A stretch of DNA of 64,000 nucleotides from an uncultured Methylococcaceae bacterium (GCA_903859815.1 CAIOOA010000303.1:4513-68512), one strand, 5' to 3'. Counted from the first letter of the stretch, positions 6,894 to 51,797 are shown. A program made the numbers and translations. The notes: a model not told the origin generated them from the letters alone.

Positions 6894-7346
6894 ATGCCTA
6901 TGCATTCCCGTATATACATTAGGAAGTGCATGATCATTCTATTATTCTCAATTCAACTTATAACTAGTAGCACGGCATTTTGTGAAGAAGTCGTTGTTGC
7001 TGTACATAAAGGTACTTCTGTAATTTCACCAATTTCACGGTACACATTATCTGCCATATTTGGAATGCGGTCGACAACGTGGACAGATGGAACAGCAATA
7101 AAGGTTTTTGTATTGCCTGATGATAGTCATTTACATTCACTTTTTTGCAAGCAAATCCTACATATATTTCCTCATCAACTTCGAACTGCTTGGGACAGAT
7201 TGGTTTACTCTGGAACAGGTCAAGCACCTATTGTTTTAGGTTCTGAGCAAGAAATGCAAGCACGTATAGCAAGCACACCTGGGGCGATAGGTTATTTACC
7301 AAAGGAAACGTTTGATGAAAATATTACCATATTACCTGTGGAATAG
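6894..7346 (+). CDS. small periplasmic substrate-binding-like (PstS/PBP-like) protein
   Basis: About 150 aa. Signal-like N-terminus. The core ...TLSAIFGMRSTTWTDGTAIKVFVLPDDS...PGAIGYLP resembles a phosphate-binding-protein-like half domain. The ATG at 6894 is preferred over the TTG at 6870. Confidence 0.55.
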   Translation: MPMHSRIYIRKCMIILLFSIQLITSSTAFCEEVVVAVHKGTSVISPISRYTLSAIFGMRSTTWTDGTAIKVFVLPDDSHLHSLFCKQILHIFPHQLRTAWDRLVYSGTGQAPIVLGSEQEMQARIASTPGAIGYLPKETFDENITILPVE

Positions 7347-7401
7347 TACGTTTCCTCCTTTAGTAAGTAACTTCGCATACTGCGAGAGATGTAGAAAACC
7401 T

Positions 7402-8685: not shown

Positions 8686-8711
8686 GAATAATCATATAAA
8701 GATAAAATTCT

Positions 8712-11579
8712 ATGCGCCCTTCAAGCAATATAGGTATATTTATAAGCTTAAAATGGAAAGCTTTGTTGCTTACAAGTTTAGTATTGCTAATGGTTACAGG
8801 AATTTTTATATCTTCTACTTATTTAGAATTACAAAACCAGTTTAATGAGCGTAGAGAAAATTCGCAAAAGCAATATTCTCTTCAAGTGGAAGCATTGTTG
8901 AAGCAATTTAGTAATCGCTTATTGACCTTAAGCTCATTCATTGCAAATTTACAAACTACTGAGGCAGCATTCGATATCCAACATCAAAAAAAGGCCATTG
9001 AAAAGTTTGATTCTTTAAGTTTTAACTTAGGCTTTAACATGGGAATTGAGGTTGCCACAATAGTAACAGCGGACGGTAAGACAATTGCACAATTGCGCTC
9101 GTCTGATAACACTAAGCTAAACCAAAACATTTATTCTGCTGTAAGCGTAGTTGTCGCAACTGAAAAACCGACCACACTTATTGATTGCTTAAGCAACTGT
9201 CTGGTATACGCTATCGCTCCGGTTTTAAGCCAAAAAGGTGTTGATAGAGGATTAGTAGGTGCGATAGTTATCGCATCCTCTCTGGCTGATGTTATCCGTG
9301 ATTTTCAAAGTGTGTCTGGCACAGATATAGCCATCATAGTTCAGTCTCAATCACCCACCAAAGAGAAGTCACACTGGTTGGAATCTTGGAATAGTAGCAT
9401 TATTGGCTTGACAAATTCAGATAGAAATATAGAGCTTATCCGTAGTTTCTCCAATGAAAAAAAACACATCGATTCGGTTTTCAAAGCAACACAATTTCTT
9501 TACCAAGATAAACAATATCAAATTGTAATACGCCCTTTACCAGACTTAAACTTAACCGACAAAGCTTATTTAGCCATAATTGCCGATATTACCGAAGCCA
9601 TTCAACACATTCACAATTCGACTACCCATAGTATTTTTATTGGTGTTAGTGGCTTTCTTCTTTCTGAAATATTTCTGTTGTTTATCTTATGGTCACCTAT
9701 GTCCAGTCTACGCCGTTCCGCAGAAAATTTACCTCTGCTTGCCGACGGTGAATTCGATAAAGTTCGTATCGCTATTTCCTCAAGTCGTAGTAAAAGGATG
9801 TTTGGTGACGAAGTGGATGTCTTGAATGAAACTACCATATCCTTGACGGATCAACTGGAATCGTTGAATCATGAAGTTGCCAGTAGGATGGAGGAGATTA
9901 TTCGCGAGAAAAATTTCGTCAATAATGTACTTGATACTGCCCAAGCAATAATTCTTACCCAAAATGAAAATCAAGAAATACTTATGATAAACCCTTATGG
10001 TGCTAAAATCATGGGGTACAAGCAAGAAGAATTGCAGGGTCTTCATTTTTCAAAATTACTATTACAACAAAATAAGCAAAACAAAAACATAGATTATATT
10101 AAAGATATAATAACAGGTTTACATGAGCATATTGAATTCGAATGTGACATCCAATGTAAAGATGAAAATATTCTGAATGTTGTTTGGCAACATTCCAAAT
10201 TAAAATCGAAAATTAAGGACGGCCCTGTAATCTTATCCGTAGGAATGGATATTACTGCAAGGAAAAAAGCCGAGATGCGCCTAGCGTGGTTAGCTGATCA
10301 TGATCCATTGACAGGGTTGTACAATCGGCGTCGTTTCGAGAGTGAATTGGAAGATGCCATAGCCTTGGCAAAGCGTTATAGACATTCTGGTGCTTTACTT
10401 TTTTTTGATTTAGATCAATTCAAATATGTGAATGATACAAGTGGTCATGCCGCAGGCGACCGTTTATTAGTTATGCTCAGTAACAAGATACCCCTTCTCC
10501 TCAGAGAGGTTGATATTATTGGACGTCTTGGTGGTGATGAATTTGGAGTGATACTAAGCCATGCCAATGCTGCTGTCGCCATACAGGTGGCTAAGAAAAT
10601 TCTCAATCATATTAGAGATACTGAATTTCAAGTAGGGGATAGGGTTCACAAAATTTCTGCAAGCATTGGTATTGCTCTTTTCCCTGAACATGGCAGTGAT
10701 GTTCAGGATTTATTAGCCCGCACCGATCTTGCAATGTATCATGTTAAAGAAAGTGGCAGAGGTGGATGGTATTTATTATCTACTAATGACGATAGCCATC
10801 GAATCATGCAAGAACGGGTTTTGTGGAAACAGCGGATGGAAATTGCGCTTGCAGAAAACTTATTTGTTCTGTATGTACAACCTATAGTGAATATCAAAAG
10901 TGGGCTGACCAGTCACTATGAGGTTTTGTTACGCATGAGAGGAGAGGGGACAACTCTCATTGCGCCATCTCATTTCATTGAAATTGCGGAACATACCGGA
11001 CTCATTCACACACTAGACCGAATGGTTTTGTCGCAAGCTGCTTTTCAGCTTGCCTTGCTAAACGACCTTGGCAAGGATATAACCCTAACAATAAACCTAT
11101 CCGGCCACGCATTCACCGATCCTGAATTGTTAAATCATATTAAAAAGGTGATCCATCAAAACAAGCTAAATCCCAAACAAATTATTTTTGAAATGACGGA
11201 AACGGCTGCCGTTACTGATTTTGACTCAGTGCTAGAATTAATGAAATCGATCAATTCAATTGGTTGTCTATTTGCTTTGGATGATTTTGGAACTGGGTTT
11301 TCTTCTTTCTCTTACTTACGCCAGTTGCCATTTGAGTATATAAAAATTGACGGTTCGTTCATTCGCAATCTACGGACTAGGCCCGACGACCAAGTATTGG
11401 TTAAAGCCATTGCTGATATTGCTTTTGCTTTTAATAAAAAGACGATTGCTGAGCAAGTTGAAGATGCTGAAACACTTGATTATTTAAAAGAGATTGGAAT
11501 TGATTACTCTCAAGGTTTTTACACAGGTAGACCCATGGAAATAATGGAAGCATTCCGTCTAATTGGATTGGACAGTTAA
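8712..11579 (+). CDS. membrane sensor PAS-GGDEF-EAL protein (c-di-GMP turnover)
   Basis: 955 aa. Two TM segments flank a periplasmic domain of about 290 aa. PAS region, then RLGGDEFGV (GGDEF), then YEVLLR...DDFGTGFSS...EQVED (EAL). Confidence 0.88.
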   Translation: MRPSSNIGIFISLKWKALLLTSLVLLMVTGIFISSTYLELQNQFNERRENSQKQYSLQVEALLKQFSNRLLTLSSFIANLQTTEAAFDIQHQKKAIEKFDSLSFNLGFNMGIEVATIVTADGKTIAQLRSSDNTKLNQNIYSAVSVVVATEKPTTLIDCLSNCLVYAIAPVLSQKGVDRGLVGAIVIASSLADVIRDFQSVSGTDIAIIVQSQSPTKEKSHWLESWNSSIIGLTNSDRNIELIRSFSNEKKHIDSVFKATQFLYQDKQYQIVIRPLPDLNLTDKAYLAIIADITEAIQHIHNSTTHSIFIGVSGFLLSEIFLLFILWSPMSSLRRSAENLPLLADGEFDKVRIAISSSRSKRMFGDEVDVLNETTISLTDQLESLNHEVASRMEEIIREKNFVNNVLDTAQAIILTQNENQEILMINPYGAKIMGYKQEELQGLHFSKLLLQQNKQNKNIDYIKDIITGLHEHIEFECDIQCKDENILNVVWQHSKLKSKIKDGPVILSVGMDITARKKAEMRLAWLADHDPLTGLYNRRRFESELEDAIALAKRYRHSGALLFFDLDQFKYVNDTSGHAAGDRLLVMLSNKIPLLLREVDIIGRLGGDEFGVILSHANAAVAIQVAKKILNHIRDTEFQVGDRVHKISASIGIALFPEHGSDVQDLLARTDLAMYHVKESGRGGWYLLSTNDDSHRIMQERVLWKQRMEIALAENLFVLYVQPIVNIKSGLTSHYEVLLRMRGEGTTLIAPSHFIEIAEHTGLIHTLDRMVLSQAAFQLALLNDLGKDITLTINLSGHAFTDPELLNHIKKVIHQNKLNPKQIIFEMTETAAVTDFDSVLELMKSINSIGCLFALDDFGTGFSSFSYLRQLPFEYIKIDGSFIRNLRTRPDDQVLVKAIADIAFAFNKKTIAEQVEDAETLDYLKEIGIDYSQGFYTGRPMEIMEAFRLIGLDS

Positions 11580-11608
11580 CCCAATAGCCAGCCTAGGGAA
11601 GGCATGTC

Positions 11609-12847
11609 TTATCCGATTGACTGCAATATCAGTGAAAAATATTGGTTTGGTTCTATTCCAAAATCACTTGGTCGATGTACGGATGCAATCCGATAGGGAC
11701 GACCTTGATCGTCAACTTTCTTCTCTCCCAAATCAACGAATCTCTGGCATGGTTCCCTATGGTTGTCGCGCACGACTAAGACCTGAGGATGTTGACGATT
11801 TAATGGATCTGAGTTCACTACAATTGCCACCTCTTTGGAAGTAAGCTCAACTATGGAACCGGGCGGATAACCCCCTAGATATGAGATTAGCAGAGAACAA
11901 AGCCTCTCGTCGATTTTCTTTTCCTTGGCTAAATGGTTTAGTATGTAAATCGCCCTGAAATGATCCTTTGCCGGTCGAAATGGCATAGTGCTAGTGATTG
12001 CATCGTACTTGTCCACCACGCCCACTATTTTGCAAAACATACTGAGTTGATCACCTTGCAAACCCCGAGGATAGCCACTGCCGTCTAAATTTTCATGATG
12101 ACCATAAGCTACATCCGCAGTACCCAATGACAATGACCCACTAGACATGATAATGTCACGCCCTGCTTGGCTATGTCTTTGAATGATCGCATGTTCCTCG
12201 TCAGTCAGTTTACTTGTTTTGTTTAGTATGTCTTCAGGAATCAATACTTTTCCCATATCATGAAGAAGCGCACTGATTGCCAAATTATGCAATTGTTTAT
12301 GTGTGAGATTTAGCAGATTACCGATAAGCAGGGAATATACGCAACAGTTGAAAGCCTCTTGCCCCCTCAGCCCATCTTTGCTACGCAGTTGTACAAGGAA
12401 TATCATCAGTTCAGGATTGCGAAGCATAATGTCTACGCACTCATGGGCCGCGTCTTTAGCTAGATGTATATCAGGACTCATACCATATCGGATTTCATCC
12501 CAGAACGTATTGACTAGATTTGTGGTCTGCTTTCGAATGGTTTCTGCATTCTCAATTTCGTCAAGCAAAAAGGTTTTCCCTTTTTTGTTTAGTATTGAAC
12601 CAGAAGGCAACTGGTCTATGATGACATTCTCCACCTTGCTGCGATCTACGTCGATATGAACATACTCGCAATATTGTATCACCTCATTGATCAACTCCTC
12701 ACTCTCCACTGCAAAGCCTTGAAGTGGAAATGGGGTTTCCAGCCATGGCCGATCAATCTCGCATATAAACATTCCTTTTTTTAGGTCGCTGACGTGTAGC
12801 TTGACCTTCTCTAGTTTCCGATTGTTAATTGATATGTTATCTGACAC
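11609..12847 (-). CDS. HD-GYP domain c-di-GMP phosphodiesterase-like protein
   Basis: 412 aa. LLHDMGK and HHENLDGSGYPRGL motifs. N-terminal DUF3391-like region. Confidence 0.85.
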   Translation of the reverse strand: MSDNISINNRKLEKVKLHVSDLKKGMFICEIDRPWLETPFPLQGFAVESEELINEVIQYCEYVHIDVDRSKVENVIIDQLPSGSILNKKGKTFLLDEIENAETIRKQTTNLVNTFWDEIRYGMSPDIHLAKDAAHECVDIMLRNPELMIFLVQLRSKDGLRGQEAFNCCVYSLLIGNLLNLTHKQLHNLAISALLHDMGKVLIPEDILNKTSKLTDEEHAIIQRHSQAGRDIIMSSGSLSLGTADVAYGHHENLDGSGYPRGLQGDQLSMFCKIVGVVDKYDAITSTMPFRPAKDHFRAIYILNHLAKEKKIDERLCSLLISYLGGYPPGSIVELTSKEVAIVVNSDPLNRQHPQVLVVRDNHREPCQRFVDLGEKKVDDQGRPYRIASVHRPSDFGIEPNQYFSLILQSIG

Positions 12848-13067
12848 GGCGATCTCACATGGTTACACTGGAAATATATGCAGATAATATTCGAATATCT
12901 ATACTGTTGTTACTAAATATAAATATTCTATATTGCCTAAGATACTATATTTATTGAAGCAAAGGCTTTATGTTATATTTGCTGCGCTATAGTTTAAATT
13001 TTCCCTAGAACATTATGCAAAACCAGCACTCCATTTTCAAGATATTTTTAATGGAATCTGATCATGT

Positions 13068-15539
13068 TTATCCCTTTGGTTTAGGCTTAATCCCAGACAC
13101 TGGATTGTGAGTGTTTTCTGCAACAACGGACACTTGAAGCAGTGAATCCCTATCAAAATGGATGTCCCGTTGCGGGAAAGGAATCGAAATACCTGCTTTG
13201 CTCAAGGCATCAACGATCATGCAGCGTAAATCGCTCATCACCTGCGAGGAGCTGACTTTAGGACCCATTTTCAACCAGAAATACAAACCAAACACTAATG
13301 CATTGTCGCCGAAATCCTCCAGCCACACAAACGGCTCAGGATCATCCAGTATCTGACCGTGACGCTCGGCACAATCTAGCAATAGTTGGATCACTTCACG
13401 TGGGGAAGTGCCATACGCGACTCCAATACGAACCGAACGCCGAATGTTCGGATTGGTGTACGTCCAATTAGTCACTTTGCTTTCGAGGAATGTCGAGTTT
13501 GGAATCATCGTCTCCACTCCGTCGAATCCGTGGACAGTGGAGGACCGGATGTCTATTTCGGTAATTGTGCCAACGATATTATCCACTTCTACGACATCTC
13601 CCACTTTGATTTTATGTTCAAGCAGGATCATCACGCCGCTGATCAGATTTTTCAACATCGTTTGAGTTCCAAAACCGACACCGATAGCCAATGCACCCCC
13701 TAAAAACGCAAAAGCTGTCAATGGGATTCTGGCAAATGTTAACACCACGACTAATAAAATGAGCGACAAGGCTATCAATACCCATCGCCTCAGCACATTC
13801 GACTGGACTTCATCAATTCCGAAACGGAATACCAACATTCGCTGGAATCTCCGGGCAAGCCATTTGGCAAACCAGAAACCAATGATAAAAACTGCAAAGG
13901 CACTAAAAAATTTTCCTATGGTCACACCCCGGGTGATGCTGACTTTCTTGCCCTCAAAATCGACTTCATCGTCCACCGTGAACAATTCGAACTTATACAG
14001 TTGTTGCATGAAATTGACTGAGTCTTGAAGCTGTTCCTTGAACTTGTCCGAAACCGGCCTTTCCTTCAACTTCGATTTGTAGTCATTAAGCCACCGTGCA
14101 AGCATATGCTCGGTCCGGTCTGCAATTAGACGGATGCGCTCGGCAGATTGGCGCTTCAGTCGATAAGCCTCCAAAACCTGAGTTTCATAATGGCGTAAGG
14201 GTGATTCTTTGCCAATGCCGTCTAGTTTCGTCTGCTGGTTATACTCTTCGCTGACCGCCAACCTGAGGGTGTCCTGGGTAAAGGAACCCCATTGCTGTAG
14301 GCGTTCATAATCTCGTACCAACTGGTTGAACGTATTTTGCCGGATCTTGGGATCAGTCGTGGTTAGCAGGGTATATTGGTAGCTCCAAAATTCCTCAATA
14401 TGGCTATTGAAAACCACCAAGGTTCCTAATGTCTCAGTTTGTTGGCTGGTTGCAGAAACCCACGCATTGGCTGCACGCAAACGGGCATCAAGTATTTCCA
14501 TGCGCAAGCTATCTATGGCTGGGGCTTCCGCTTTCTCTGCATCGGCTTTGGCTGTTTCTATTTCCCTAACAATGGCATCTCGTTCTTTGTTCCATCGAGT
14601 GTTTTCGGATACGGACTTTTGCTGCTCCATTTCAAGCGCCTTTGTACTTAACCTCAGGCCGTCCCGGACTTTATCCAAGTCAGCATCGCTAAGTAAAGCT
14701 TGAGAGGCAGCTTGTTTGATTTTTTTCTCCAATAATACGAACTCAGCTTTGGTCGCTGCTAGTTTGGCATTCACTAGCCTTGCTTGGATTTCATTAAACC
14801 AAACCTTGCGCTCTGCATTGCGCACCCGCCATTCAGCGAAATCCTTCAGCCAGATTGCTTTGGCAGCGTCATCTGGGCTGTTGGCACGATCTACCGTCTC
14901 AGTTGCCGACCGCAAGGATGCATTGGCCCGAGACACTTCAGATTGGAGATTGGTGGAGTCCGTCTGCCAGCTTGCCAATGAAGATTCCAACACTGCCTGT
15001 TTGCCCCGCAATGCCTCCGCTTCCTCTTCCAAACCATACAACATCAACATTGAATAGGGCGGAGGAGTGGCGAAACCGGTCCATTTCTGGATTTGGGTTT
15101 CAATCGTTTTCAGTTTTTCCCGCTCAATATCCACTGCGTTTAGACTATTGAGTCCCTCTTGGTAAAAAAAGATCAGACTTTCGATCAATCGTCTCCTTTC
15201 GGTCACTTCTTCGGGTTTGATTCCTACGGGTGCTTTTGTGTCATAATTGCCGCCATCCAGTCGGTCACGGTAAGCTTGGATTTCATCAAGCCGCCGTTTG
15301 AGTTCTTCACGTATCTCTTCTGGCGACGGTGAAGCCTCTGCTTTTTTATTGTCTTTGTTGGCCGAAAGCATCTCTACCGGACTCAAGGCAGCATAAGCCA
15401 TTGGGTTGTTCAGCAACAGGGAGGCCAACATGACGATAGCCAATGTCATTCGACAAGCAGGACTCAAGTGACTGAGGTAGTCGTTTAGTGTGTGCGGCAT
15501 TTCCGCCAAATTGAACATTTGTGTGGGATGGACTTTCAT
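13068..15539 (-). CDS. large MscS-family mechanosensitive channel (MscK/MscM-like)
   Basis: 823 aa. Long coiled-coil periplasmic N-region, multiple TM segments, and a C-terminal MscS core (GDVVEVDNIVGTITEIDIRSSTV). The true start may be an internal Met (MTLAIVMLASLLL). Confidence 0.85.
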   Translation of the reverse strand: MKVHPTQMFNLAEMPHTLNDYLSHLSPACRMTLAIVMLASLLLNNPMAYAALSPVEMLSANKDNKKAEASPSPEEIREELKRRLDEIQAYRDRLDGGNYDTKAPVGIKPEEVTERRRLIESLIFFYQEGLNSLNAVDIEREKLKTIETQIQKWTGFATPPPYSMLMLYGLEEEAEALRGKQAVLESSLASWQTDSTNLQSEVSRANASLRSATETVDRANSPDDAAKAIWLKDFAEWRVRNAERKVWFNEIQARLVNAKLAATKAEFVLLEKKIKQAASQALLSDADLDKVRDGLRLSTKALEMEQQKSVSENTRWNKERDAIVREIETAKADAEKAEAPAIDSLRMEILDARLRAANAWVSATSQQTETLGTLVVFNSHIEEFWSYQYTLLTTTDPKIRQNTFNQLVRDYERLQQWGSFTQDTLRLAVSEEYNQQTKLDGIGKESPLRHYETQVLEAYRLKRQSAERIRLIADRTEHMLARWLNDYKSKLKERPVSDKFKEQLQDSVNFMQQLYKFELFTVDDEVDFEGKKVSITRGVTIGKFFSAFAVFIIGFWFAKWLARRFQRMLVFRFGIDEVQSNVLRRWVLIALSLILLVVVLTFARIPLTAFAFLGGALAIGVGFGTQTMLKNLISGVMILLEHKIKVGDVVEVDNIVGTITEIDIRSSTVHGFDGVETMIPNSTFLESKVTNWTYTNPNIRRSVRIGVAYGTSPREVIQLLLDCAERHGQILDDPEPFVWLEDFGDNALVFGLYFWLKMGPKVSSSQVMSDLRCMIVDALSKAGISIPFPQRDIHFDRDSLLQVSVVAENTHNPVSGIKPKPKG

Positions 15540-24521: not shown

Positions 24522-25205
24522 TTATACTATGTGTGTCAATCCCCTAAGTTTATCCATCCACTCTCGAAAATGCCTACATTCTAGTTCTATTGTAGAGAGG
24601 GTAATGCGCTCGGCAGCGAGTGGTCCATGTCGTGTTTTGTGATAAGTTGGTTTGAGCAAATCTTCTAAGCGTTTTGAGGGCTTCGTAGCATAACCTTGGT
24701 TTATGTGTTCAGGCGTTTCAAATTCTTTGCGCACTTGTTTCAGCTTAATTAAATAATTAATCCATGAAGGCTCAACGCTTGTTAGCGCTTCAATATCGGA
24801 AAAAAGTAGACCTTCAAATTCATAAGGTTGAATATACGGTATGAAACGATCCGGCGGCTGGAATCCAACTTGCTCCATTAAAGTATCATACAAAGCATTT
24901 TCGAGTATATTTACTTTATCGTACAAATCAGCTTTCTTATTGGCTTCGTCAAATCTTGGAAAGTCTGTATCTAATGCGTATAAATCAATGAATGTAGTCA
25001 AGAACAAATTTGATTTACTTCTCAAAGTATTCCGTGCATTAAATCTAAGTCGGTCAAAGGTTATGGCCCCTCCTTTACTGTCTTTGGATGTTCTTAATAA
25101 TTGAGGTTTTACGAAAACCTGTAAGCGTCGCAAAGATGGCGCAATAAGTCTTTTAATGAACTGCTCTTCTGTTTGCCCCTCAGCAATAACAATTACTTCC
25201 CTCAT
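24522..25205 (-). CDS. DUF4276-like small protein (TOPRIM-like N-terminal motif), partner of the upstream ATPase
   Basis: 227 aa. N-terminus MREVIVIAEGQTEEQFIKRL (strand-EG-x-TE), later TTFIDLYALDTDFP. Starts 4 nt after the ATPase stop. AT-rich. Confidence 0.6.
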   Translation of the reverse strand: MREVIVIAEGQTEEQFIKRLIAPSLRRLQVFVKPQLLRTSKDSKGGAITFDRLRFNARNTLRSKSNLFLTTFIDLYALDTDFPRFDEANKKADLYDKVNILENALYDTLMEQVGFQPPDRFIPYIQPYEFEGLLFSDIEALTSVEPSWINYLIKLKQVRKEFETPEHINQGYATKPSKRLEDLLKPTYHKTRHGPLAAERITLSTIELECRHFREWMDKLRGLTHIV

Positions 25206-25209
25206 TTAT

Positions 25210-26298
25210 CTAGGGTCTCCCGCCTAGGATATTACGCTTCCAAAGCTCACCCAGAGAATACTCTGCTAACCAACAAGATAGTTCATTTTCGCTGAAACGA
25301 CGAAAGACAGATGCATCATCTTCATAATCTACTACAACCACGTCTTTAGGAGATAATTCGTTGACGAGTTCGACTGATTGGGTGGATAGGATTAATTGCC
25401 GTTGATCTGATATCTGCTTCAGAATTTCAGCTAGAACAGTCACAGCATATGGATGTAAACCTAGTTCTGGTTCATCTATAATCACTGTATCAGGCAAAAG
25501 CTCGATTGGTTGTAACAACAGAGTTGCAAGACAGATAAAGCGTAGAGTTCCATCTGATAACATATGGGCTTTGAATGGTGTGTCGGGTTTTCCTCGTTGC
25601 TTCCATTCTAATTCAATATATTCTTGTTCAAGTGGGCGATGGATAAAATCATCAAAGAAAGGTGCTACTAAGCGAATAGTTTCTACAATTCGCATATATT
25701 GAGATGGGTGTTTCTCGTATAACATTCTTAAATATGCGGCAAGATTAGCAGCATCTGATTTTAGATATAAATTATCATTTCCTGCTTGTAAACGTTTAAC
25801 CTTTGCTGACTCGCTTGTATTTCCAAAATGATAATTATGCCAGTCTCTAATGGTCTCACGGACAGGTGTATATTCATCAGGATATTTTTGAGAGCTAAGT
25901 ATCATAGAGTTATCTTTGGCGATACTAATTGAAGCAATACCAGAATCTGGGAAGCTGTAGGAACCAAACCATATACTTTCGTTTTCAACTATTAATCTAT
26001 TATCAACAGTTGGCGATAGTCTGCAACTATAACCGCCAGAGTCAAAACAAACCATAAATTGCAACACATCAGTGGTTTCTCGTCCAAAATGTAATAAAGC
26101 ATCCGGGCCTCCTTGTTTTTGAACATATAATTGCAATTGCTGCTCATATATCTGATTAAGAAATCGAAAAAGGCCAATTAAATTGCTTTTACCCGCGCCA
26201 TTGGCTCCAATCAGCACGTTCAAATTATTAAGTTTGAAATCGCGCAGTTCTCGAATCGATTTGTAGCCAACAATACTCAGGGAACTAACAGCAGACAT
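25210..26298 (-). CDS. ABC/SMC-like (AAA_21-type) ATPase
   Basis: 362 aa. Walker A GANGAGKSN, signature-like MLSDGTLRF, Walker B TVIIDEPELGLHP, C-terminal LGELWKRNILGGRP. Confidence 0.8.
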   Translation of the reverse strand: MSAVSSLSIVGYKSIRELRDFKLNNLNVLIGANGAGKSNLIGLFRFLNQIYEQQLQLYVQKQGGPDALLHFGRETTDVLQFMVCFDSGGYSCRLSPTVDNRLIVENESIWFGSYSFPDSGIASISIAKDNSMILSSQKYPDEYTPVRETIRDWHNYHFGNTSESAKVKRLQAGNDNLYLKSDAANLAAYLRMLYEKHPSQYMRIVETIRLVAPFFDDFIHRPLEQEYIELEWKQRGKPDTPFKAHMLSDGTLRFICLATLLLQPIELLPDTVIIDEPELGLHPYAVTVLAEILKQISDQRQLILSTQSVELVNELSPKDVVVVDYEDDASVFRRFSENELSCWLAEYSLGELWKRNILGGRP

Positions 26299-26330: not shown

Positions 26331-27764
26331 TTATGCTTTTACATTCCAACTAATAAACCCCTTCAAATCCTCCACATCCGCATCCATGACTTCATAATGC
26401 TGGGGTAGTTTTTCCATCCCTTCCATGCTGACGGGGCGCTCTGGCTCACGTCCCAAGGCTTCTCGTATCGTTTCCTCAAATTTTGCGGGTAACGCGGTTT
26501 CCAAACAAATGAGCGGTAAACCGCTTCGACGCTGTTCAATACCCACTTTCAGTCCATCGGCAGTATGGGTATCGATCATCATGCCATATTCTTCCCAAGT
26601 CTTCCGAATCGTGGCAAGGCGATCAGCATGGGTGCTTTTGCCTGAGACAAAGCCAAAGCCGGGAAGCGCATCCCAATAAGGAGTACCCTTGATGTCAAAC
26701 GCCCCACCCGCGTCGACTTGCCCCCAAAACTCTCTCAATTGAGCCGGGGCGTGCCCGACTAGATCAAAGATGAAACGCTCAAAGTTAGAAGCCTTGGAAA
26801 TGTCCATGGACGGGCTACTGGTATGGAAAGTCTGGGTCGTGCCGCGTGGTCGGTAGACACCGGTGCGAAAGAACTCATCAAGCACATCGTTTTCATTGGT
26901 GGCTAGGATCAACTGGGCAATAGGCAACCCCATCATCCGGGCGATGTGACCGGCACAGATGTTGCCAAAATTGCCGGAGGGGACCGAAAATGCCACTTGC
27001 TCATCGTTGGATTGTGTCGCGGCGAAATAGCCCTTGAAATAATACACCACTTGAGCGGAAATCCGGCCCCAATTGATCGAATTGACCGTGCCAATTTTAT
27101 ACTTCGCCTTGAAAGCCAAGTCATTGGAGACCGCTTTGACCAAATCCTGGGCATCGTCGAACACACCGCGGACAGCGATGTTAAAAATGTTAGGGTCTTG
27201 CAAGGAGTACATCTGTGCGGTTTGAAAAGCCGACATTTTGCCATGCGGGGAGAGCATGAAAACCCGAATGCCACGCTTGCCGCGCATCGCATATTCCGCC
27301 GCCGACCCGGTGTCGCCCGAAGTCGCTCCTAGAATATTCAATTCCTCGTGTTGTTTGCCTAAAGCATATTCAAACAAATTACCCAACAACTGCATTGCCA
27401 TGTCCTTAAATGCCAGAGTCGGCCCATTGGACAGTTCCAAAATGTGCAAACCCGGTTCCAACGTGCGCAGCGGGGCTATTTGGCTAGTATCCGAATCGGA
27501 GCGGGCGTTGCCGTATACTTCAGGAGTATAGGTTTTTTGGGTAATGGCCTTTAGGTCTGCGGAGGGAATGTCTGGGGCAAATTTGGACATCACTGCAAAG
27601 GCCAAATCCGCATAAGACAAGGTACGCCATTGATCCAATTCTTTGCGGGTTACTTGCGGATATTCCTCAGGCAAATACAGTCCACCATCGGGCGCGAGTC
27701 CGCCCAGCAGAATTTCAGTGAAGGTTTTGGAGGGGGAGTTACCACGGGTGGAGAGGTATTTCAT
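26331..27764 (-). CDS. thrC: threonine synthase (long form)
   Basis: 477 aa. MKYLSTRG N-terminus and PLP-lysine region GPTLAFKDMAMQ. Appears full length. Confidence 0.93.
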   Translation of the reverse strand: MKYLSTRGNSPSKTFTEILLGGLAPDGGLYLPEEYPQVTRKELDQWRTLSYADLAFAVMSKFAPDIPSADLKAITQKTYTPEVYGNARSDSDTSQIAPLRTLEPGLHILELSNGPTLAFKDMAMQLLGNLFEYALGKQHEELNILGATSGDTGSAAEYAMRGKRGIRVFMLSPHGKMSAFQTAQMYSLQDPNIFNIAVRGVFDDAQDLVKAVSNDLAFKAKYKIGTVNSINWGRISAQVVYYFKGYFAATQSNDEQVAFSVPSGNFGNICAGHIARMMGLPIAQLILATNENDVLDEFFRTGVYRPRGTTQTFHTSSPSMDISKASNFERFIFDLVGHAPAQLREFWGQVDAGGAFDIKGTPYWDALPGFGFVSGKSTHADRLATIRKTWEEYGMMIDTHTADGLKVGIEQRRSGLPLICLETALPAKFEETIREALGREPERPVSMEGMEKLPQHYEVMDADVEDLKGFISWNVKA

Positions 27765-27795
27765 TTGGGATGCCTGTTTTTGTATATGGGCAGGA

Positions 27796-28509
27796 TTAAG
27801 GGGTCATCTCTTGTATAATCCTATCAACATCATTGTGAAAAACTTCAGCTTGTGAACAGATTTTGCGAATCGTATTCCAGTTATTATAAATGCTGTAAGC
27901 ATGACGTATGTATACAGTCTTTGATTTCCTTATGCGTTTTACTTTCGGTAAATTAGCTAATTGGGTCGCCATGCCTTGATTGCACTCAAGCTCTCGGAGT
28001 AGCTTAGCATCTTCATCTTCACGAAAAACTGCTGCGGCAAGCCAAGCTTCACTGGACTTGGACGGTATACAGAACACCGATTTTCTGCCTAAATTTGCAA
28101 CCCCCAACCAAGATAAAAAAACAATTTTGAGCTTTTCGATAGTATCTGATGCTGGTGGACAAGGTGATGAGCAAGGCAATGATGCCAAGGCTTCTTCCTG
28201 AGCCATATTAGCTACGTTAACACCATAGTCGGCATATGATTTGTCCGCTACGTCGGCATCCAGATGTAAAATTACCATGTCGAAAAGTTCAAGTGTCGGA
28301 TCGCTCTCTACCGTAGCACAGCCCCGTACATGAAATTCCCGACACCACTTCATCACTTTGCCCCAGCCCTCTCCAAGATCCGGTCGAGTCCCTACCGGCG
28401 GTTGGTAGGTCAGAATAAATGGACAAGGCAATATTGCTTTTAACGCTGCTTCGATAATGACCTGATCAGTAGTCCCTTCCGCCACCAAGGCAATACGTAA
28501 ATCAGACAT
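27796..28509 (-). CDS. small TOPRIM-like protein (E ... DxD), partner of the upstream ATPase
   Basis: 237 aa. IALVAEGTTDQVII (Glu11) and MVILHLDADVAD (Asp84-x-Asp86). 8-bp overlap with the ATPase gene. Confidence 0.55.
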   Translation of the reverse strand: MSDLRIALVAEGTTDQVIIEAALKAILPCPFILTYQPPVGTRPDLGEGWGKVMKWCREFHVRGCATVESDPTLELFDMVILHLDADVADKSYADYGVNVANMAQEEALASLPCSSPCPPASDTIEKLKIVFLSWLGVANLGRKSVFCIPSKSSEAWLAAAVFREDEDAKLLRELECNQGMATQLANLPKVKRIRKSKTVYIRHAYSIYNNWNTIRKICSQAEVFHNDVDRIIQEMTP

Positions 28510-29704
28510 TCGGTATCGCCCCTAGGCTCCCCATCAGCCAAAGCCTTGAAAGTGGATAGTCATTGTTGAGTGCTGCCAAACGATCTGTTAGCAGGATGCG
28601 GTTGACTCTGGTATGACCGTCGCTGTTGCGATCCACAGCAAACAGACGAATTTCATTATCCGTTAAATCAAGTCCATCAAGTACGGCAGGGTTATGTGCG
28701 GTGAACAGGATTTGTCGCCCCTTCTTGTTAACCAGATTTAGCCATTCACCGAGCTTGCTGGTTAAGCGGGTCACTAGACGTGGATTTAAAGCTTGGTCTA
28801 GGTTGTCTATTGCAAATAATCTAGGGGATTTGGGAGATAGGCAGAGTATCGCCGTGAACAGCACATACAATGCACCTTCACTGGCATCCGAGGCAGTAAG
28901 AGTATTGCGCTCTTTCCTCATATAGCGGTCAGTGAACTTTAAAACTTCTTGGGTGCGCGCCACAGAAGGTGAAAGTAGGGAACCTGCCGCATTTGTCGCT
29001 TCGATGTCAACAACCCAATCAACTAATTCAAAGACGCTGTTTAGAAGGTCTTCGTCCTTGTCGAGAATGTCTTTGCGCAATTCTGCGAATGCTTCAGCTA
29101 AGCGACCACCCGAAAGCCCGACTGGTTCCCGTGATTGGGGATCACCCACCATGCCGCGCAAAGCAGGGGTGTTGGGGGAGTAAATCGCGTAATTTTGCAA
29201 GCGCCGCATCAGTTTAAATGCCTTATTTTCCTTGTTTAACTCCAAGATTTTCAACGCTGCAAGTCCCTGTGTCGAGTCTAGATTCTTCTTACCGCGCACT
29301 CCGTCTGATACGATTTCATTTTTTCCATCGTCAGTTAAAAATTCGGTTTTAAATGCCCAAGCCGGTTCCGGGTTCTCCAATGGATTAAGCAGCGAAATCC
29401 GATATTCCTGTTTGTTGATACCCGAAGCGGAAATAGCAATATGCGCTGGGGTTCTTTCAGTTTCAAAAGAAGATTTATAAAGGCGCGGTAAGCCGGGGCG
29501 TACACCACGACGCAACAGGGCTTCGTCATCCACCACTCCATTCGCCGCTGCGCCTAGTACACCAATTGCCTCTAAGATATTGCTTTTGCCTACGCCATTG
29601 GCTCCAATAAAACAATTGACCCTACCCAATTCCAAAGTCATTTCAGGGATAGATTTGAAACCGTTGATTGTAATTTTGCGAATCAATGAAATCTCCAAGT
29701 ACAA
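28502..29704 (-). CDS. ABC/SMC-like ATPase with non-canonical Walker B
   Basis: 400 aa. Walker A GANGVGKSN, signature-like ASDASEGALYV, Walker B position reads RLFAIDNLDQALNP (DN instead of DE), FTAHNP. The C-terminal LSRLWLMGSLGAIP is similar to the tail of the 25210-26298 protein. A likelier start is the TTG at 29686, preceded by GGAG. Confidence 0.75.
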   Translation of the reverse strand: MYLEISLIRKITINGFKSIPEMTLELGRVNCFIGANGVGKSNILEAIGVLGAAANGVVDDEALLRRGVRPGLPRLYKSSFETERTPAHIAISASGINKQEYRISLLNPLENPEPAWAFKTEFLTDDGKNEIVSDGVRGKKNLDSTQGLAALKILELNKENKAFKLMRRLQNYAIYSPNTPALRGMVGDPQSREPVGLSGGRLAEAFAELRKDILDKDEDLLNSVFELVDWVVDIEATNAAGSLLSPSVARTQEVLKFTDRYMRKERNTLTASDASEGALYVLFTAILCLSPKSPRLFAIDNLDQALNPRLVTRLTSKLGEWLNLVNKKGRQILFTAHNPAVLDGLDLTDNEIRLFAVDRNSDGHTRVNRILLTDRLAALNNDYPLSRLWLMGSLGAIPNV

Positions 29705-29835
29705 TCTGAGTAGTTTTCTCGATGACTTTTAGCACCTTGAATCCATTTATGGTTCGCAATAAACATTAAAATCCAAGGCTTTTGTGCGAATCATTCAGCA
29801 AAACTGCATAGACACTTGCAATTCAATACCTCAAT

Positions 29836-30507
29836 TTATCGGTTTCCGCTCGTCGGCTGAACAGGCTTTGCCGCTACAGGTTTACTACTCGAAGACGTTG
29901 TCGGTTTTGCCGTGCTGGTATTCTTCGCAGCCGGTTTTGCAGTTTTGAGTGCCTTCAAATCTGCTTGGGCAACCTCATCCCCTTGCTCGGCAGCTTTCCT
30001 CAGCCAGAGCGCGGCTTGCGTTACATCCTTCTTCACGCCTTGACCATCGCGATAAGCCAAGCCGAGATTATGTTGCGCCTGGGGGAAACCTTGATCGGAA
30101 GCCTTGCGGAACCAGTCGACTGCTTGCCCATAATCTTGGGTGACACCTTGCCCTTGCTTATAGAGTATTCCTAGGTTATTCTGCGCTTGCGGCAAGCCTT
30201 GGAGGGCGGCCTTGCGATACCATTGAGCGGCTTGTGTGTAATCTTGATCCACACCTTGACCCGTATCATAAGCCATGCCTAAATTATATTGGGCTTTGGC
30301 ATCACCTTGATCGGCCGCTTTGCGGAACATTTCAGCGGCAAGTTTGTAATCCTTGCGTTGATACGCATCCTTCGCAGCTTGCATGGACGATTGCGGGGTT
30401 TCCTCGGTGCCAGTCTTCACCGCTTGGGTACAGGCAATCAAACCCGAAACTGAAACCCAAAAGACCACACCCAAACGTAACACGGAACGCAGTTTCATCT
30501 TCATCAC
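29836..30507 (-). CDS. Sel1-repeat lipoprotein
   Basis: 223 aa. Lipobox LIAC. About 4 Sel1 repeats (AQWYRKAALQG.P.AQNNLG..Y..GQGV..D). Ser/Pro/Lys-rich tail. Confidence 0.8.
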   Translation of the reverse strand: MMKMKLRSVLRLGVVFWVSVSGLIACTQAVKTGTEETPQSSMQAAKDAYQRKDYKLAAEMFRKAADQGDAKAQYNLGMAYDTGQGVDQDYTQAAQWYRKAALQGLPQAQNNLGILYKQGQGVTQDYGQAVDWFRKASDQGFPQAQHNLGLAYRDGQGVKKDVTQAALWLRKAAEQGDEVAQADLKALKTAKPAAKNTSTAKPTTSSSSKPVAAKPVQPTSGNR

Positions 30508-30653
30508 CTTAGTTTAAAATTTTTTAGGAAACCATCCAGTGCGGTAACCAACCTTTTCAAGCGCTATTCACATGGGCAGGGTGATTGAATAATCCTTGCC
30601 CGTCATCCAGTATCACTCGTCAGTTACCCATAAGCTCGCAGAACGAATTATTA

Positions 30654-32384
30654 TTACATCCCACCCTTGGCACCAGGATTGTAACCCTGCTGCATTGCCT
30701 TCATTTTTAGTTCGTTGGCCAAATCGGAGTTACGCTCTACGCCAATGCCATCTTGATAGGCAAGACCCAAGGTATATTGGGCAGGGGGATAATTCTGGTC
30801 CGCCGCCTTGCGTATCCACTCGACAGCAAGCTTATCGTCTTGAGGCACACCCTGACCGTTATGATAAAAAACCCCGAGACTGAACTGTGAAGGGGCATAG
30901 CCTTGCTCGGCTGCTTTGCGGAACCAAGCGGCAGCTTGGGCTTCGTCCTGCTTTATCGAGGTTCCCGTCTGATAGGAAACTCCGAGACTATGCTGAGCAT
31001 TGGCAAGACCCTTATCAGCGGCTTTTTGCACCCATTGTAGGGCTTGGTTCTCATCTAGCGGAACTCCTTGCCCATTATGATATAAAAGTGCAAGATTGTA
31101 TTGCGCCATTACATGCCCTTGATCGGCCGCCTTGCGATACCATTGCGCTGCTTGGGTAAGGTCGCGAACCACGCCTTGGCCCTCTTGGTATACATAACCT
31201 AGTCTGTATTGAGCATTTGCGTCCCCTTTTTCTGCCGCTTTGCGGGTATCGACAAGCGTGGAGTCCTCGGTTGCCGCTTGGGTGGCTTTGGGGGGACGGA
31301 AACCTTGAACCATTGCCTTCAGTTTCAGTTCATTGGCTTTTTCGTTGTTTCTTTCGACACCGCGACCAGATTCGTACAATAAACTTAAGGCATATTGCGC
31401 ATTGGCAAAGCCCTGTTCAGCCGACTTAGCATACCAAACGGCAGCTTGCGAATCGTCTTGGGCGACACCCAAGCCATCTTGATGCAATGCGCCCAACACA
31501 AATTGGGCATTCGCATTGCCCTGCTCGGCGGCTTTGCGAAACCATGCGGCGGCTTCTTGATGGTTTTTTGCGCGCAACGCGACAAAGCCCTCCCTGACTT
31601 GGGCAAGCGCTGAGCCTTGCTCGGCCGCCTTGCGATACCACAAGTTTGCTTGGCCCAAATCTTTTGCAACACCTTGCCCCTTCTCGTAAGCATAGGCCAG
31701 GTTGTATTGCCCATACGGTGAACCACTATCGGCCGCCCTGCGATACCACTGCGCGGCTTGCTCTAAATCTTTGGGGACACCCTTGCCCTGTTCGTAAAGC
31801 TGGCCTAAGTTTATTTGCGATGAGGCATCCCCCCGTTCGGCTGCTTTACGAAACCACTTGACCGCTTGGTTAAAGTCTTGTTGCTGGACGCCCTGTCGAT
31901 CCCGATACATCACCCCCAGGTTACCCATAGCCTTGGCATCCCCTTGATCAGCCGCCTTGCGATACCACAAAAGGGCGCTGGCATAGTCTTGAGGTATCCC
32001 CTTGCCCGTATAGTAATAATTTCCCAAGGCTTGCTGTGCTTCAATTGCTCCCTGTTCGGCAGCCCGACTTATCCATTGGAAGGCTTGAGCATAATCTTGT
32101 GGGACACCCTGCCCAAATTGGTATTGCATTCCCAAATTGTATTGTGCCCACGCATCGCCAAGGTCACCTGCCTTTTGCAGCCATTCAGCCGCGTGGACAA
32201 AATCCTTGCGCTCATAGGCTTCCTTGGCTGCTTCGTGGGCGTCACGAACCGATTTCTGCATGTTGGCAACTTCAGTTTCTTGACTGAGTGATCGCTCTTG
32301 CGACAAGGAAAAATTTTGCAACGGCAGGGAAATCGAGGTGGAACTCATGGCAAGCAAACAAGCAGCCACTGCCAATCGCCACAT
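30654..32384 (-). CDS. large Sel1-repeat protein
   Basis: About 576 aa from the ATG at 32384 (the ORF track starts at the TTG at 32414). Signal peptide. About 14 Sel1 repeats of the WYRKAA(E/D)QG...AQ.NLG type. Confidence 0.8.
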   Translation of the reverse strand: MWRLAVAACLLAMSSTSISLPLQNFSLSQERSLSQETEVANMQKSVRDAHEAAKEAYERKDFVHAAEWLQKAGDLGDAWAQYNLGMQYQFGQGVPQDYAQAFQWISRAAEQGAIEAQQALGNYYYTGKGIPQDYASALLWYRKAADQGDAKAMGNLGVMYRDRQGVQQQDFNQAVKWFRKAAERGDASSQINLGQLYEQGKGVPKDLEQAAQWYRRAADSGSPYGQYNLAYAYEKGQGVAKDLGQANLWYRKAAEQGSALAQVREGFVALRAKNHQEAAAWFRKAAEQGNANAQFVLGALHQDGLGVAQDDSQAAVWYAKSAEQGFANAQYALSLLYESGRGVERNNEKANELKLKAMVQGFRPPKATQAATEDSTLVDTRKAAEKGDANAQYRLGYVYQEGQGVVRDLTQAAQWYRKAADQGHVMAQYNLALLYHNGQGVPLDENQALQWVQKAADKGLANAQHSLGVSYQTGTSIKQDEAQAAAWFRKAAEQGYAPSQFSLGVFYHNGQGVPQDDKLAVEWIRKAADQNYPPAQYTLGLAYQDGIGVERNSDLANELKMKAMQQGYNPGAKGGM

Positions 32385-32513
32385 TTGCGAATTATTCACC
32401 CATTTTCTCCACAAAGTCCAACCGTTTAAAATATCTTATCAAAAGCTGACAACGCTTAAACATGGAGTTTATAGGTAAATGATGCCATGAGGATGATTGA
32501 TGCGGTGTCATTA

Positions 32514-33815
32514 CTAGCCCAAAGTTTCCAAACGAATTAATTTTATTGATTTATTGATTGTGGGCAGTGCTTCGATTTCTGCCACTGCCGCCTTCAATTC
32601 ACGTTCCAAGGTTTTATGGGTAAGCATGATGATGGGCACAAATGTCTCCCCGGCATGGGGTTCCTTCTGGAGTATGGCTTCAATGCTAATGTTGTGGTTA
32701 GCCAAAATGCGTGTCACATTCGCCAACACACCTGGCTTGTCCTCGGCTGACAGGCGCAAGTAATAAGCGGTCTTGACGGCCTCAATCGGCAATATGGGTA
32801 TGTCAGTGATATGCTGCGGCTGAAAAGCCAAATGTGGAACCCGGTTTTCCGGGTCCGATGTGAGCGTCCTCACTACATCGACAATATCGGCAACCACAGC
32901 CGATGCCGTAGGCTCGGCCCCGGCCCCCGCCCCGTAGTAGAGCGTCGGACCAACGGCATCGCCTTTGACCAACACGGCATTCATCACTCCGTCAACATTG
33001 GCTATCAACCGGCGTTCGGGGATCATCGTGGGGTGAACTCGCAATTCCACACCCAGTTCGGTCCGGCGGGCAAGACCCAGCAACTTGATCCGATAACCCA
33101 ATTCTTCGGCATAGGCGACATCGACACGGCTAATGCCGCTTATCCCTTCAATATAAACCTTGTCAAACTGCAAGGGAATGCCAAATGCAATGGAGGCCAG
33201 TATGGTAAGCTTATGGGCGGCATCGATGCCTTCCACATCGAAGGTGGGATCGGCTTCGGCATACCCTTTTGCCTGAGCCTCTGCCAGCACGTCGGTAAAT
33301 TCACGACCCTTGTCCCGCATTTCAGTGAGAATGAAATTGCAAGTCCCATTGATGATGCCCGCCACCCATTCGATCTTATTTCCGGTCAAACCCTCGCGCA
33401 ATGCCTTGATGATCGGTATGCCCCCGGCAACGGCGGGCTCGAAGGCAACCATCAAGCCCATCTCGCTGGCTTTCGCAAATATTTCGTTGCCATGTTTCGC
33501 AATCAATGCCTTATTGGCGGTCACCACATGCTTGCCATTGGCAAGGGCGGTGAGGATGAGTTGCTTGGCCGGTTCTTCGCCCCCAATCAGTTCGACAACA
33601 ATATCCACCTCGGGATCGTTGACAACCTCAAAACCGTCTTCCGTCAATGGAATGCCGGTCGTGTCGCAGGTGCATTTCCCTCTGGCCGCAGCCCGGTAGA
33701 TTTGAATCTCCCGCCCTGCCCTGCGGCTAATTTCCGAGGCATTTCTACGCAATACATTGACGGTGCCGCCACCGACAGTGCCCAGTCCGAGCAAACCAAT
33801 TTTTACGGGCTTCAA
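32514..33815 (-). CDS. hom: homoserine dehydrogenase
   Basis: 433 aa. NAD site IGLLGLGTVGGG, the conserved catalytic domain, and a C-terminal ACT domain. Confidence 0.93.
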   Translation of the reverse strand: MKPVKIGLLGLGTVGGGTVNVLRRNASEISRRAGREIQIYRAAARGKCTCDTTGIPLTEDGFEVVNDPEVDIVVELIGGEEPAKQLILTALANGKHVVTANKALIAKHGNEIFAKASEMGLMVAFEPAVAGGIPIIKALREGLTGNKIEWVAGIINGTCNFILTEMRDKGREFTDVLAEAQAKGYAEADPTFDVEGIDAAHKLTILASIAFGIPLQFDKVYIEGISGISRVDVAYAEELGYRIKLLGLARRTELGVELRVHPTMIPERRLIANVDGVMNAVLVKGDAVGPTLYYGAGAGAEPTASAVVADIVDVVRTLTSDPENRVPHLAFQPQHITDIPILPIEAVKTAYYLRLSAEDKPGVLANVTRILANHNISIEAILQKEPHAGETFVPIIMLTHKTLERELKAAVAEIEALPTINKSIKLIRLETLG

Positions 33816-33850
33816 ATCGCTGTCCTCTAAAGTTAGGGGGAAGATGCAAA

Positions 33851-51721: not shown

Positions 51722-51797
<76 letters not shown>

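Follow-up and report, generated by a model that had tools for sequence, protein, structure and literature searches.

Modules that combine an ABC-type ATPase with a TOPRIM protein (OLD, Gabija, PARIS, RloAB and HEC-01) are among the commonest architectures of bacterial immunity, and few of their triggers have been worked out. In PARIS, the ATPase AriA sequesters the effector AriB, and the AriA mutant E393Q shows no hydrolysis, is insensitive to Ocr, keeps AriB bound and has lost defence (PMC10802264). GajA, in contrast, has an ATPase-like domain without ATPase activity, and the binding of nucleoside triphosphates inhibits its TOPRIM nuclease (PMC8136825). A further set of 145 phage defence candidates (PDCs) has come from "guilt-by-embedding" in BREX, DISARM and type I restriction-modification loci (bioRxiv 10.1101/2024.01.29.577857). 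Here we describe a two-gene locus of the ATPase-plus-TOPRIM-like kind at positions 27796-29704 of a 64,000-nucleotide stretch of DNA from an uncultured Methylococcaceae bacterium; this whole stretch is referred to as the window. From its profile matches the pair, whose products we call A and B, is a chromosomal copy of PDC-M31, an already catalogued candidate family, and not a new architecture. The main points of interest are the loss of the catalytic Glu throughout the family of A, the orphan TOPRIM-like effector family to which B belongs, and the well-resolved slot beside thrC in which cargo genes are swapped.

Both open reading frames lie on the minus strand, at 29704..28502 and 28509..27796, with the 8-nucleotide overlap given in the preliminary description of this sequence, and every motif quoted there translates exactly at its position. 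The pair also stands, as described, directly upstream of thrC, with 31 nucleotides from the B stop to the thrC ATG at 27764. The features of the pair are listed here; HEC-01A is the ATPase of a separate system in the window.

29704..28502, minus strand: gene A as the listed open reading frame, 400 residues, TTG start
28502..29686, minus strand: PDC-M31A, ABC-type (AAA_21/AAA_15 clan) ATPase, 394 residues from the probable TTG start
28509..27796, minus strand: PDC-M31B, putative metal-dependent TOPRIM-like effector, 237 residues, ATG start
28502..28509, minus strand: 8-nucleotide overlap ATGTCTGA of the A stop and B start, with the same spacing in most of 78 loci
29579..29605, minus strand: Walker A/P-loop GANGVGKSN (Lys40), from the translation and a 74-homologue alignment
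28868..28891, minus strand: ABC signature-like SDASEGAL (Ser275-Glu276-Gly277), which aligns with LSDGTL of the neighbouring HEC-01A
28778..28819, minus strand: degenerate Walker B and D-loop LFAIDNLDQALNPR, with Asp300 kept, Asn301 at the catalytic Glu position and Asn307 at the D-loop Asp position
28688..28705, minus strand: H-loop region FTAHNP (His337)
28465..28500, minus strand: B motif I LRIALVAEGTTD, strand β1 and Glu11-Gly12-x-x-Asp15, from conservation and the model
28249..28278, minus strand: B motif II MVILHLDADV, strand β3 and Asp84-x-Asp86, from conservation and the model
28045..28074, minus strand: B strand β4 (residues 144-147 in the model) and the conserved Pro149-Ser-Lys-x-x-Glu154
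29687..29835, minus strand: non-coding leader, from the stop of a Sel1-repeat gene to the A start

Translation of A probably begins 18 nucleotides inside the listed frame, with the TTG of 29686. A GGAG in the leader lies 6 nucleotides 5' of this TTG, the PADLOC model and nearly all homologues of A start at the residue encoded from 29686, and nucleotide homology with L083, a syntenic locus that carries the same pair, starts exactly there. No convincing promoter was seen in the leader (29687..29835), where the promoter scan gave nothing above the shuffled expectation. The 8-nucleotide overlap between the two genes implies that their translation is coupled.

Defence families were assigned with the profile models of PADLOC-DB v2.0.0. 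A matches PDC-M31A (PDLC04570) with E = 3.9e-186 and 616.9 bits over residues 8-400 and model positions 2-395 of 395, and B matches PDC-M31B (PDLC04571) with E = 9.5e-92 and 305 bits over residues 1-232 and model positions 1-230 of 233. Since both matches are full-length, the pair is a member of this catalogued phage defence candidate, with the same gene order and orientation and no difference at the level of sequence. The next-best PADLOC matches of A reach about 80 bits at most (HEC-01A, the generic AriA model, PDC-M25A, PDC-M07A, AbiLi, NsnB and Mad3); in Pfam it matches AAA_21 (E = 7.9e-23), and AAA_15 and SMC_N match its N-terminus. B has no match in Pfam, NCBIfam or PHROGs. In the supplement of Payne et al. 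the family is cassette CAS_00126, FAM_00005>>FAM_00304, with a count of 102 and the remark "Assign as candidate PDC-M31" (bioRxiv 10.1101/2024.01.29.577857). The copy on an Enterobacter plasmid is annotated by PGAP as "ATP-binding protein" and "hypothetical protein". The preliminary description had proposed a defence-type module that could be PARIS-like or a sibling family, to be placed by profile searches; the PADLOC and Pfam searches put it in PDC-M31, with B lacking a Pfam match, and so in a sibling family rather than in PARIS itself. The PDC-M31 match, the linkage of the two genes and the restriction-modification and conflict genes that surround them, all described below, support the defence-type reading.

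The family is large and widespread. At E<=1e-3, B has homologues in 572 database clusters at 90% identity and among 945 representatives at 50% identity; with the AAA_21 match of A, these numbers show that the two frames did not arise by chance. A genome scan yielded 80 loci from about ten bacterial phyla or classes, spanning Gamma-, Beta- and Alphaproteobacteria, Desulfobacterota/Geobacter, Myxococcota, Cyanobacteria, Spirochaetota, Bacteroidia, Lentisphaerae and Anaerolineae. A and B form an obligate, translationally coupled and co-evolving pair throughout: a homologue of A ends at the start of B in all 78 loci with upstream DNA, usually with the 8-nucleotide overlap, and the pairwise identities of A and B are correlated with r = 0.85 over 2,628 pairs. 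The expectation in the preliminary description that homologous pairs would be linked in other genomes was therefore borne out in 78/78 cases. Mean pairwise identity is 52% for B versus 67% for A, that is, B evolves faster.

About a quarter of the PDC-M31 loci sit in type I restriction-modification operons, directly after hsdS. HsdS is the immediate upstream neighbour in 17/72 loci, and among the downstream neighbours (75 loci) HsdR is found in 8 and N6 methylases in 5-6. The gene orders hsdM-hsdS-[A-B]-hsdR and hsdR-hsdS-[A-B]-hsdM, confirmed in four loci (L004, L035, L059 and L075), show that the cassette comes after hsdS. The embedding in restriction-modification, BREX or DISARM loci that defines a PDC is thus seen in the relatives, by way of type I restriction-modification. 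Their further neighbours include MmeI, GmrSD, DarT, PIN, Fic, caspase-like and GT4-conflict proteins; no conserved helicase neighbour was found among the surveyed flanking genes. Plasmids carry the pair very rarely (1/72,556), and 50,697 phage records contained none. The sole plasmid copy (L088, positions 5821-13828 of Enterobacter hormaechei pE5_001, NZ_CP042572.1) lies between traI/dsbA and an operon of CBASS content (SAVED, ThiF and Mov34/JAB genes), past which a tyrosine recombinase is encoded.

Conservation of A was counted in 74 homologues. In Walker A, G34, G37, G39, K40 and N42 are invariant (74/74) and S41 is found in 73/74; in the signature, S275 and G277 are invariant and E276 is kept in 73/74; and the H-loop H337 is likewise present in 73/74. 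The Walker A, signature and H-loop of an ABC ATPase are therefore in place, whereas the catalytic Glu of Walker B is not. At this position the preliminary description had read AIDNLDQ, and this proves to be a trait of the family: D300, N301, D303 and N307 are invariant (74/74), and N301 aligns with the catalytic Glu of HEC-01A (IIDEPE), of SMC 1e69 (LDEVD) and of 9n69_A (LIDEID). A probably keeps the ABC fold without normal catalytic activity. The native Asn301 is the equivalent of the AriA mutation E393Q, which makes a PARIS-style release driven by hydrolysis unlikely, and by analogy GajA would be a nearer precedent than AriA for an ATPase without this Glu. Every member examined thus carries natively the Walker B change that abolishes PARIS when it is made artificially, and the family offers a natural experiment: how PDC-M31 switches would show whether ATP hydrolysis is essential or dispensable in such immune sensors.

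For B, conservation was measured in 91 diverse homologues with an identity of 29-50% to the query. E11, G12, W49, D84, D86 and W156 are invariant (91/91), so that the acidic residues to which the preliminary description had pointed (E11, D84 and D86) are indeed conserved across homologues. D15 and P149 follow with 90/91 each and C147 with 88/91; each of D15, E175, P149, W211, K195 and C147 is kept in at least 86/91, and 83/91 have Glu or Asp at position 154. An AlphaFold model of B has a pLDDT score (predicted local distance difference test) of 93.7 and a predicted template-modelling (pTM) score of 0.90; a second model has a pLDDT of 85.7. The order of elements in the model is β1 (4-9), α, β2 (31-35), α, β3 (78-82), helices, α (121-135), β4 (144-147) and a helical C-terminal region, which predicts an N-terminal four-strand α/β core (residues ~1-165) followed by a C-terminal helical region. 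TOPRIM domains are defined by a Glu after β1 and a DxD after β3 (PMC12065111). B has E-G-x-x-D after its predicted β1 and D-x-D after its predicted β3, and the predicted order β-α-β-α-β-α-β, seen in both of these high-confidence models, would fit a TOPRIM fold, which has three α/β layers and a four-strand sheet ordered 2-1-3-4.

The cysteines of B at 56, 113, 117, 147, 176 and 218 are also conserved, and all six are present in 49/91 homologues. Of the 11 sequences without C117, 9 have lost C176 as well, which hints at a contact between the two (a disulfide or a metal site); no cysteine of B is invariant, and an essential iron-sulphur or zinc cluster is therefore unlikely. With Pfam and NCBIfam silent and PGAP giving "hypothetical protein", B merits a family model of its own.

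We think it rather probable that PDC-M31 is a two-gene anti-phage candidate of the type "ABC ATPase sensor plus TOPRIM-like nuclease effector", probably acting by abortive infection. From the pairing, motifs, conservation and genomic contexts given above we infer a complex, a trigger, a substrate and an anti-phage effect along the following lines. A would oligomerise through its ATP-bound heads and keep B inactive. ATP would be a bound ligand or clamp rather than a fuel, as in GajA and unlike AriA, given that A is probably unable to hydrolyse it at a normal rate. Infection would lift the restraint, either through the binding of a phage protein to A, for instance an anti-restriction factor, or through a drop in nucleotide levels; an anti-restriction trigger would fit the frequent position directly after hsdS, the niche of prrC and rloAB. 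The freed B, by means of its Glu/Asp-x-Asp metal site, would then cut nucleic acid and halt phage production. Its target might be RNA (tRNA or another kind), by the example of PARIS, PrrC and OLD, or else DNA, by that of Gabija.

A more specific version, which we offer only tentatively and regard as doubtful, is that PDC-M31 is a hydrolysis-independent variant in which an ATPase lacking both the Glu and the D-loop Asp forms an ATP-clamped cage for an unclassified family of TOPRIM-like nucleases, as a back-up to type I restriction. If this were true, the system would be set off by a disabled restriction complex or by collapsing nucleotide pools, distinct from the hydrolysis-dependent PARIS, and the faster-evolving B rather than the ATPase would be the surface contested with phage.

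Several observations weigh against the reading of PDC-M31 as a sensor with a TOPRIM-like nuclease, beginning with the fold of B. The preliminary description saw the acidic pattern of a TOPRIM fold in B; the residues (91/91) and the predicted order of secondary-structure elements agree with this, and none of the sequence or structure searches gave significant similarity to an accepted TOPRIM family. Foldseek with the full-length model against the PDB returned only PurE and generic Rossmann-like folds with E>=0.076, and with the core (1-165) only TIR-STING, PurE, CheY receivers and designed Rossmann folds with E>0.01; no TOPRIM was found in either search, and the sheets of the matched structures are all of the 2-1-3-4(-5) Rossmann-like order (PurE, CheY, TIR). 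The consensus sequences of the B family have no match in Pfam, and hhalign of two B alignments against DUF4276 gave E = 0.014-0.025 with a probability below 4% over ~25-80 N-terminal columns. The cross-comparison of B and DUF4276 by hmmsearch gave P ~1e-4 to 1e-3 for the first ~35 residues only, and the B-family profile against PDB sequences gave only spurious coiled-coil matches. On the other side, the recurrent sub-threshold Pfam matches among the 91 homologues are to DUF4276 (6), OLD-like_TOPRIM (3) and Toprim (2), with a best E of 0.0026, and the best Foldseek match among viral models is RloB-like (E = 0.054, probability 0.90, template-modelling (TM) score 0.36-0.39), which is suggestive only. 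Taken together, we regard membership of the TOPRIM superfamily as likely, if unproven, for B.

The remaining points of this kind concern the ATPase, the rates of evolution and the record of the family. The loss of hydrolysis by A is deduced from its sequence, and Asp303, invariant and two positions further along, could take the part of the general base instead. Across the family B evolves faster than A, which, on the sequences compared, is the reverse of what is usual, namely that the effector is conserved and the sensor varies; between the window and L083, too, the ratio of non-synonymous to synonymous substitution rates (dN/dS) comes to 0.21 in B, 0.07 in A and 0.03 in thrC. The window copy lies outside any restriction-modification operon, and its link to restriction therefore rests on analogy with its relatives. 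The name PDC-M31 occurs in none of the paper texts searched, and no phenotype is reported for any member; in the text consulted, the PDC-M31 entry comes without domain description, mechanism or test (bioRxiv 10.1101/2024.01.29.577857). The sibling HEC-01 gave no protection in the study of Payne et al., and some in a cold-seep study.

Other explanations of the pair have to be set against these. That it is a subtype of PARIS, in which an Ocr-like trigger and ATP hydrolysis would free a TOPRIM tRNase, is quite improbable. The layout is the same, an ABC ATPase followed by a small protein with acidic motifs; A matches the PADLOC AriA model with E = 1.2e-21; and the relatives inside type I restriction-modification operons would fit a PARIS-style anti-anti-restriction role. 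The AriA match is, however, a generic one: it covers positions 1-304 of a 304-position model with the span and length of Pfam AAA_21, and scores 76 versus 617 bits for PDC-M31A. B has no AriB or DUF4435 match in PADLOC or Pfam, nor do any of its 91 homologues, and no solved AriA chain is found among the matches of the A profile to PDB sequences at E<=0.01. The catalytic Glu is Asn in 74/74 homologues of A, while AriA E393Q is dead in defence (PMC10802264), and the 50,697 phage records hold no phage-borne copy. The label "PARIS-like" of the preliminary description is thus not supported in its strict sense, with B matching neither AriB/DUF4435 nor AbiLii, and A matching only through the AAA_21 core. 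A housekeeping pair for DNA repair, like the ABC ATPase RecF and the TOPRIM protein RecR, would account for the match of the A N-terminus to RecF TIGR00611 (E = 4.6e-10) and to RecF structures (E ~0.01), but these matches span only the ~45-residue P-loop region and reach 39 bits versus a cut-off of 172. Moreover, the distribution of the pair is patchy, it is missing at the same locus in close relatives, and it is found in restriction-modification and defence neighbourhoods. This pattern of presence and absence effectively refutes the repair explanation, to which we give almost no weight.

An addiction or toxin-antitoxin-like role, or that of a restriction-modification accessory, in which the pair, with B as toxin and A as antitoxin, would mainly stabilise its locus or modulate restriction rather than give stand-alone phage defence, seems to us unlikely, although the tight pairing and the overlapping stop and start agree with it, as does the position in essential or selfish operons (after hsdS in relatives, and here between hom and thrC with no terminator before thrC). 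Close relatives with an empty or otherwise filled slot suggest that the module is readily lost or replaced, and one copy in 72,556 plasmids would be unusual for a plasmid-stabilising module; in any case, toxin-antitoxin behaviour and defence by abortive infection are not mutually exclusive. Lastly, B may not be a nuclease at all, but a TIR-like or receiver-like core that signals, binds nucleotide or degrades NAD+ and is regulated by A. The best PDB matches of the core do point this way (TIR-STING 9lmr_F, E = 0.013, probability 0.85, and CheY-type receivers), and receiver domains also bear acidic residues after β1 and β3. All these matches are non-significant, with TM-scores of ~0.3, and the combination of E-G-x-x-D and h-h-h-D-x-D-h in B is the classical TOPRIM signature (PMC12065111). 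The only recurrent sub-threshold Pfam families of B are of TOPRIM type and its best viral structural match is RloB-like, and we see only a slim chance for a signalling core.

The pair occupies a slot whose contents differ among close relatives and which lies inside the aminotransferase-hom-...-thrC gene string. The slot and its right-hand flank are as follows.

27765..29923, no strand: variable cargo slot from the 3' tail of the Sel1-repeat gene to the thrC ATG, where homology breaks; it holds PDC-M31 here
26331..27764, minus strand: thrC (threonine synthase), the conserved right flank, with Pfam Thr_synth_N/THR4_C in related contigs

The thrC of the window is 100% identical to P0390, and its closest named relative is that of Candidatus Methylumidiphilus (90%). 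Against L081, whose flank is 96.7% identical, homology breaks off at 29924 and sets in again precisely with the thrC ATG, 27764; the interval 27765-29923 therefore behaves as a defence slot in which cargo is exchanged. The states of the slot in the related contigs are these.

L081/L082: flank 96.7% identical in nucleotides; slot (198-2848 in L081) with an Eco57I-type methylase and a BsuBI/PstI endonuclease; thrC, HEC-01 and PepSY genes common at that identity
L085: thrC 89% identical in amino acids; slot (7836-8000) empty (Sel1 gene, 98 nucleotides, thrC); downstream region without HEC-01
L083/L084: thrC 88% identical in amino acids; slot (6081-7965 in L083) with PDC-M31; PepSY and DUF29 genes downstream, then HEC-01
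L086/L087: thrC 87% identical in amino acids; slot (5282-7912 in L086) with a Uma2 gene and unknown genes; PepSY and unknown genes downstream, then recJ

The window copy thus stands alone in a hom-thrC slot, unlike the relatives inside restriction-modification operons. The locus is a clean example of a defence hot spot within an amino-acid biosynthesis operon of an uncultured gammaproteobacterium, and its empty, restriction-modification and PDC-M31 states provide matched natural "isogenic" contexts for metagenomic study.

No recombinase genes flank the slot, and the search for terminal repeats and att-like sites around the cassette gave only short matches at chance level. Its guanine-plus-cytosine (GC) content of 0.462 is close to the window mean of 0.468. 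No terminator is predicted on the coding strand between B and thrC, and the terminator scan around the cassette was not above the shuffled expectation. A 13-nucleotide imperfect inverted repeat, GAGGTATTTCATT (27753-27765) and AATTCAATACCTC (29820-29832), 85% complementary, brackets the cassette, with one arm at the start of thrC and the other just past the Sel1 stop; 2.4 kb of sequence contain 15 comparable pairs, this one included, and it is therefore probably due to chance. Two Sel1-repeat proteins (586 and 223 residues; 29836-32414, minus strand) are encoded between hom and the slot, and the Pro/Ala/Lys/Ser low-complexity tail of the 223-residue one, which differs among sister strains, forms the left edge of the variable slot.

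The comparison with the copy in L083 (6081-7965) is unusual in that A is 88% identical and B only 57%, an outlier by -3.8 standard deviations from the A/B trend of the family. The synonymous divergence (dS) of A, 0.89, is below that of the flanking hom and thrC (1.9-2.5). A partial gene conversion or an accelerated evolution of B are possible explanations of the disparity. A recombination breakpoint was looked for and set aside, as identity in sliding windows falls gradually with no sharp edge. In L083, a NYN/PIN7 gene stands after the HEC-01 that is found further downstream.

On the other side of thrC the window holds a separate system, which is not part of PDC-M31.

24522..26298, minus strand: HEC-01, immediately downstream of thrC
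25210-26298, minus strand: HEC-01A, ABC ATPase, 362 residues, canonical IIDEPE Walker B; PADLOC E = 4.3e-139
24522-25205, minus strand: HEC-01B, DUF4276 TOPRIM-like, 227 residues; PADLOC E = 3.7e-73, DUF4276 E = 1.8e-47

The gene thrC thus has ABC-ATPase/TOPRIM-type candidates on both sides. The GC content of the HEC-01 pair, 0.383 compared with 0.468 for the window, indicates that it was probably acquired horizontally. A recent duplication of the HEC-01 pair was considered and rejected, for the match between the two ATPases is confined to 41 residues around the P-loop and the small proteins have no significant alignment. Elsewhere in the window, a tmRNA gene is cut at the start of the sequence (1-236, minus strand, 118.6 bits) and adjoins a tRNA-Leu(GAG) call at 280-364, with which a marginal match to a "permuted tmRNA" overlaps; a further tRNA gene, for tRNA-Ala(CGC), is at 51722-51797. 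An open reading frame of 339 residues (32811-33830, plus strand) runs on the strand opposite to hom (homoserine dehydrogenase, 32514-33815) and can almost certainly be dismissed as a shadow frame rather than a gene.

Of the known systems, HEC-01 (and with it Mad3/Mad4 of MADS, the methylation-associated defence system) has the same two-gene architecture, protein sizes and ATPase clan, with HEC-01A models scoring ~80 bits on A, and it shares with B the N-terminal motif h-h-h-AEG-x-T-[DE]; a copy lies only 1.5 kb away in the window. The partner in HEC-01 is, however, a DUF4276 protein, which B is not (no Pfam match, 6/91 homologues below threshold, hhalign probability below 4%), and the one HEC-01B model in PADLOC that matches B does so over residues 1-24 only (E = 0.0052). 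The Walker B of HEC-01A is the canonical DEPE where A has DNLD, and the two ATPases are ~44% identical over 41 residues only. In the case of AbiL, A matches AbiLi with E = 2.9e-19, again a generic match, and B has no match to the DUF4435-type AbiLii. Membership of PARIS, AbiL, OLD or Gabija was examined for the pair and rejected, since it shows neither the required small-partner match nor the fused architecture.

PARIS likewise encodes an ABC ATPase and, in a separate gene, a small protein with a metal site of Glu and DxD, and it has a conceptual link to restriction in that it senses the anti-restriction protein Ocr (PMC10802264). AriA, at 55 kDa, is larger, A being ~100 residues shorter, and it needs Glu393, which is absent in A; the effector AriB is a DUF4435 protein, to which B has no similarity. 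RloA and RloB are a further pair of ABC ATPase and TOPRIM-type protein (PMC10802264, PMC12065111), and are reported from within a type I restriction-modification locus (PMC10802264). The best viral structural match of B is RloB-like; in Pfam, none of the B family matches RloB at E<=1. PDC-M31 has the same niche as RloAB and PrrC, directly after hsdS and before hsdR or hsdM. PrrC, which stands at this place in type I restriction-modification loci, consists of one polypeptide only, and its nuclease domain is a different one.

OLD and GajA also combine an ABC-type ATPase with a TOPRIM Glu/DxD site. In these the two domains are fused in one protein, to which Gabija adds the helicase GajB, whereas PDC-M31 has separate genes, and the OLD and GajA models match A only through its ~45-residue N-terminus. 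It is nevertheless in GajA, where nucleotide bound without hydrolysis gates the nuclease (PMC8136825), that we find the behaviour predicted for the Glu-less A of PDC-M31.

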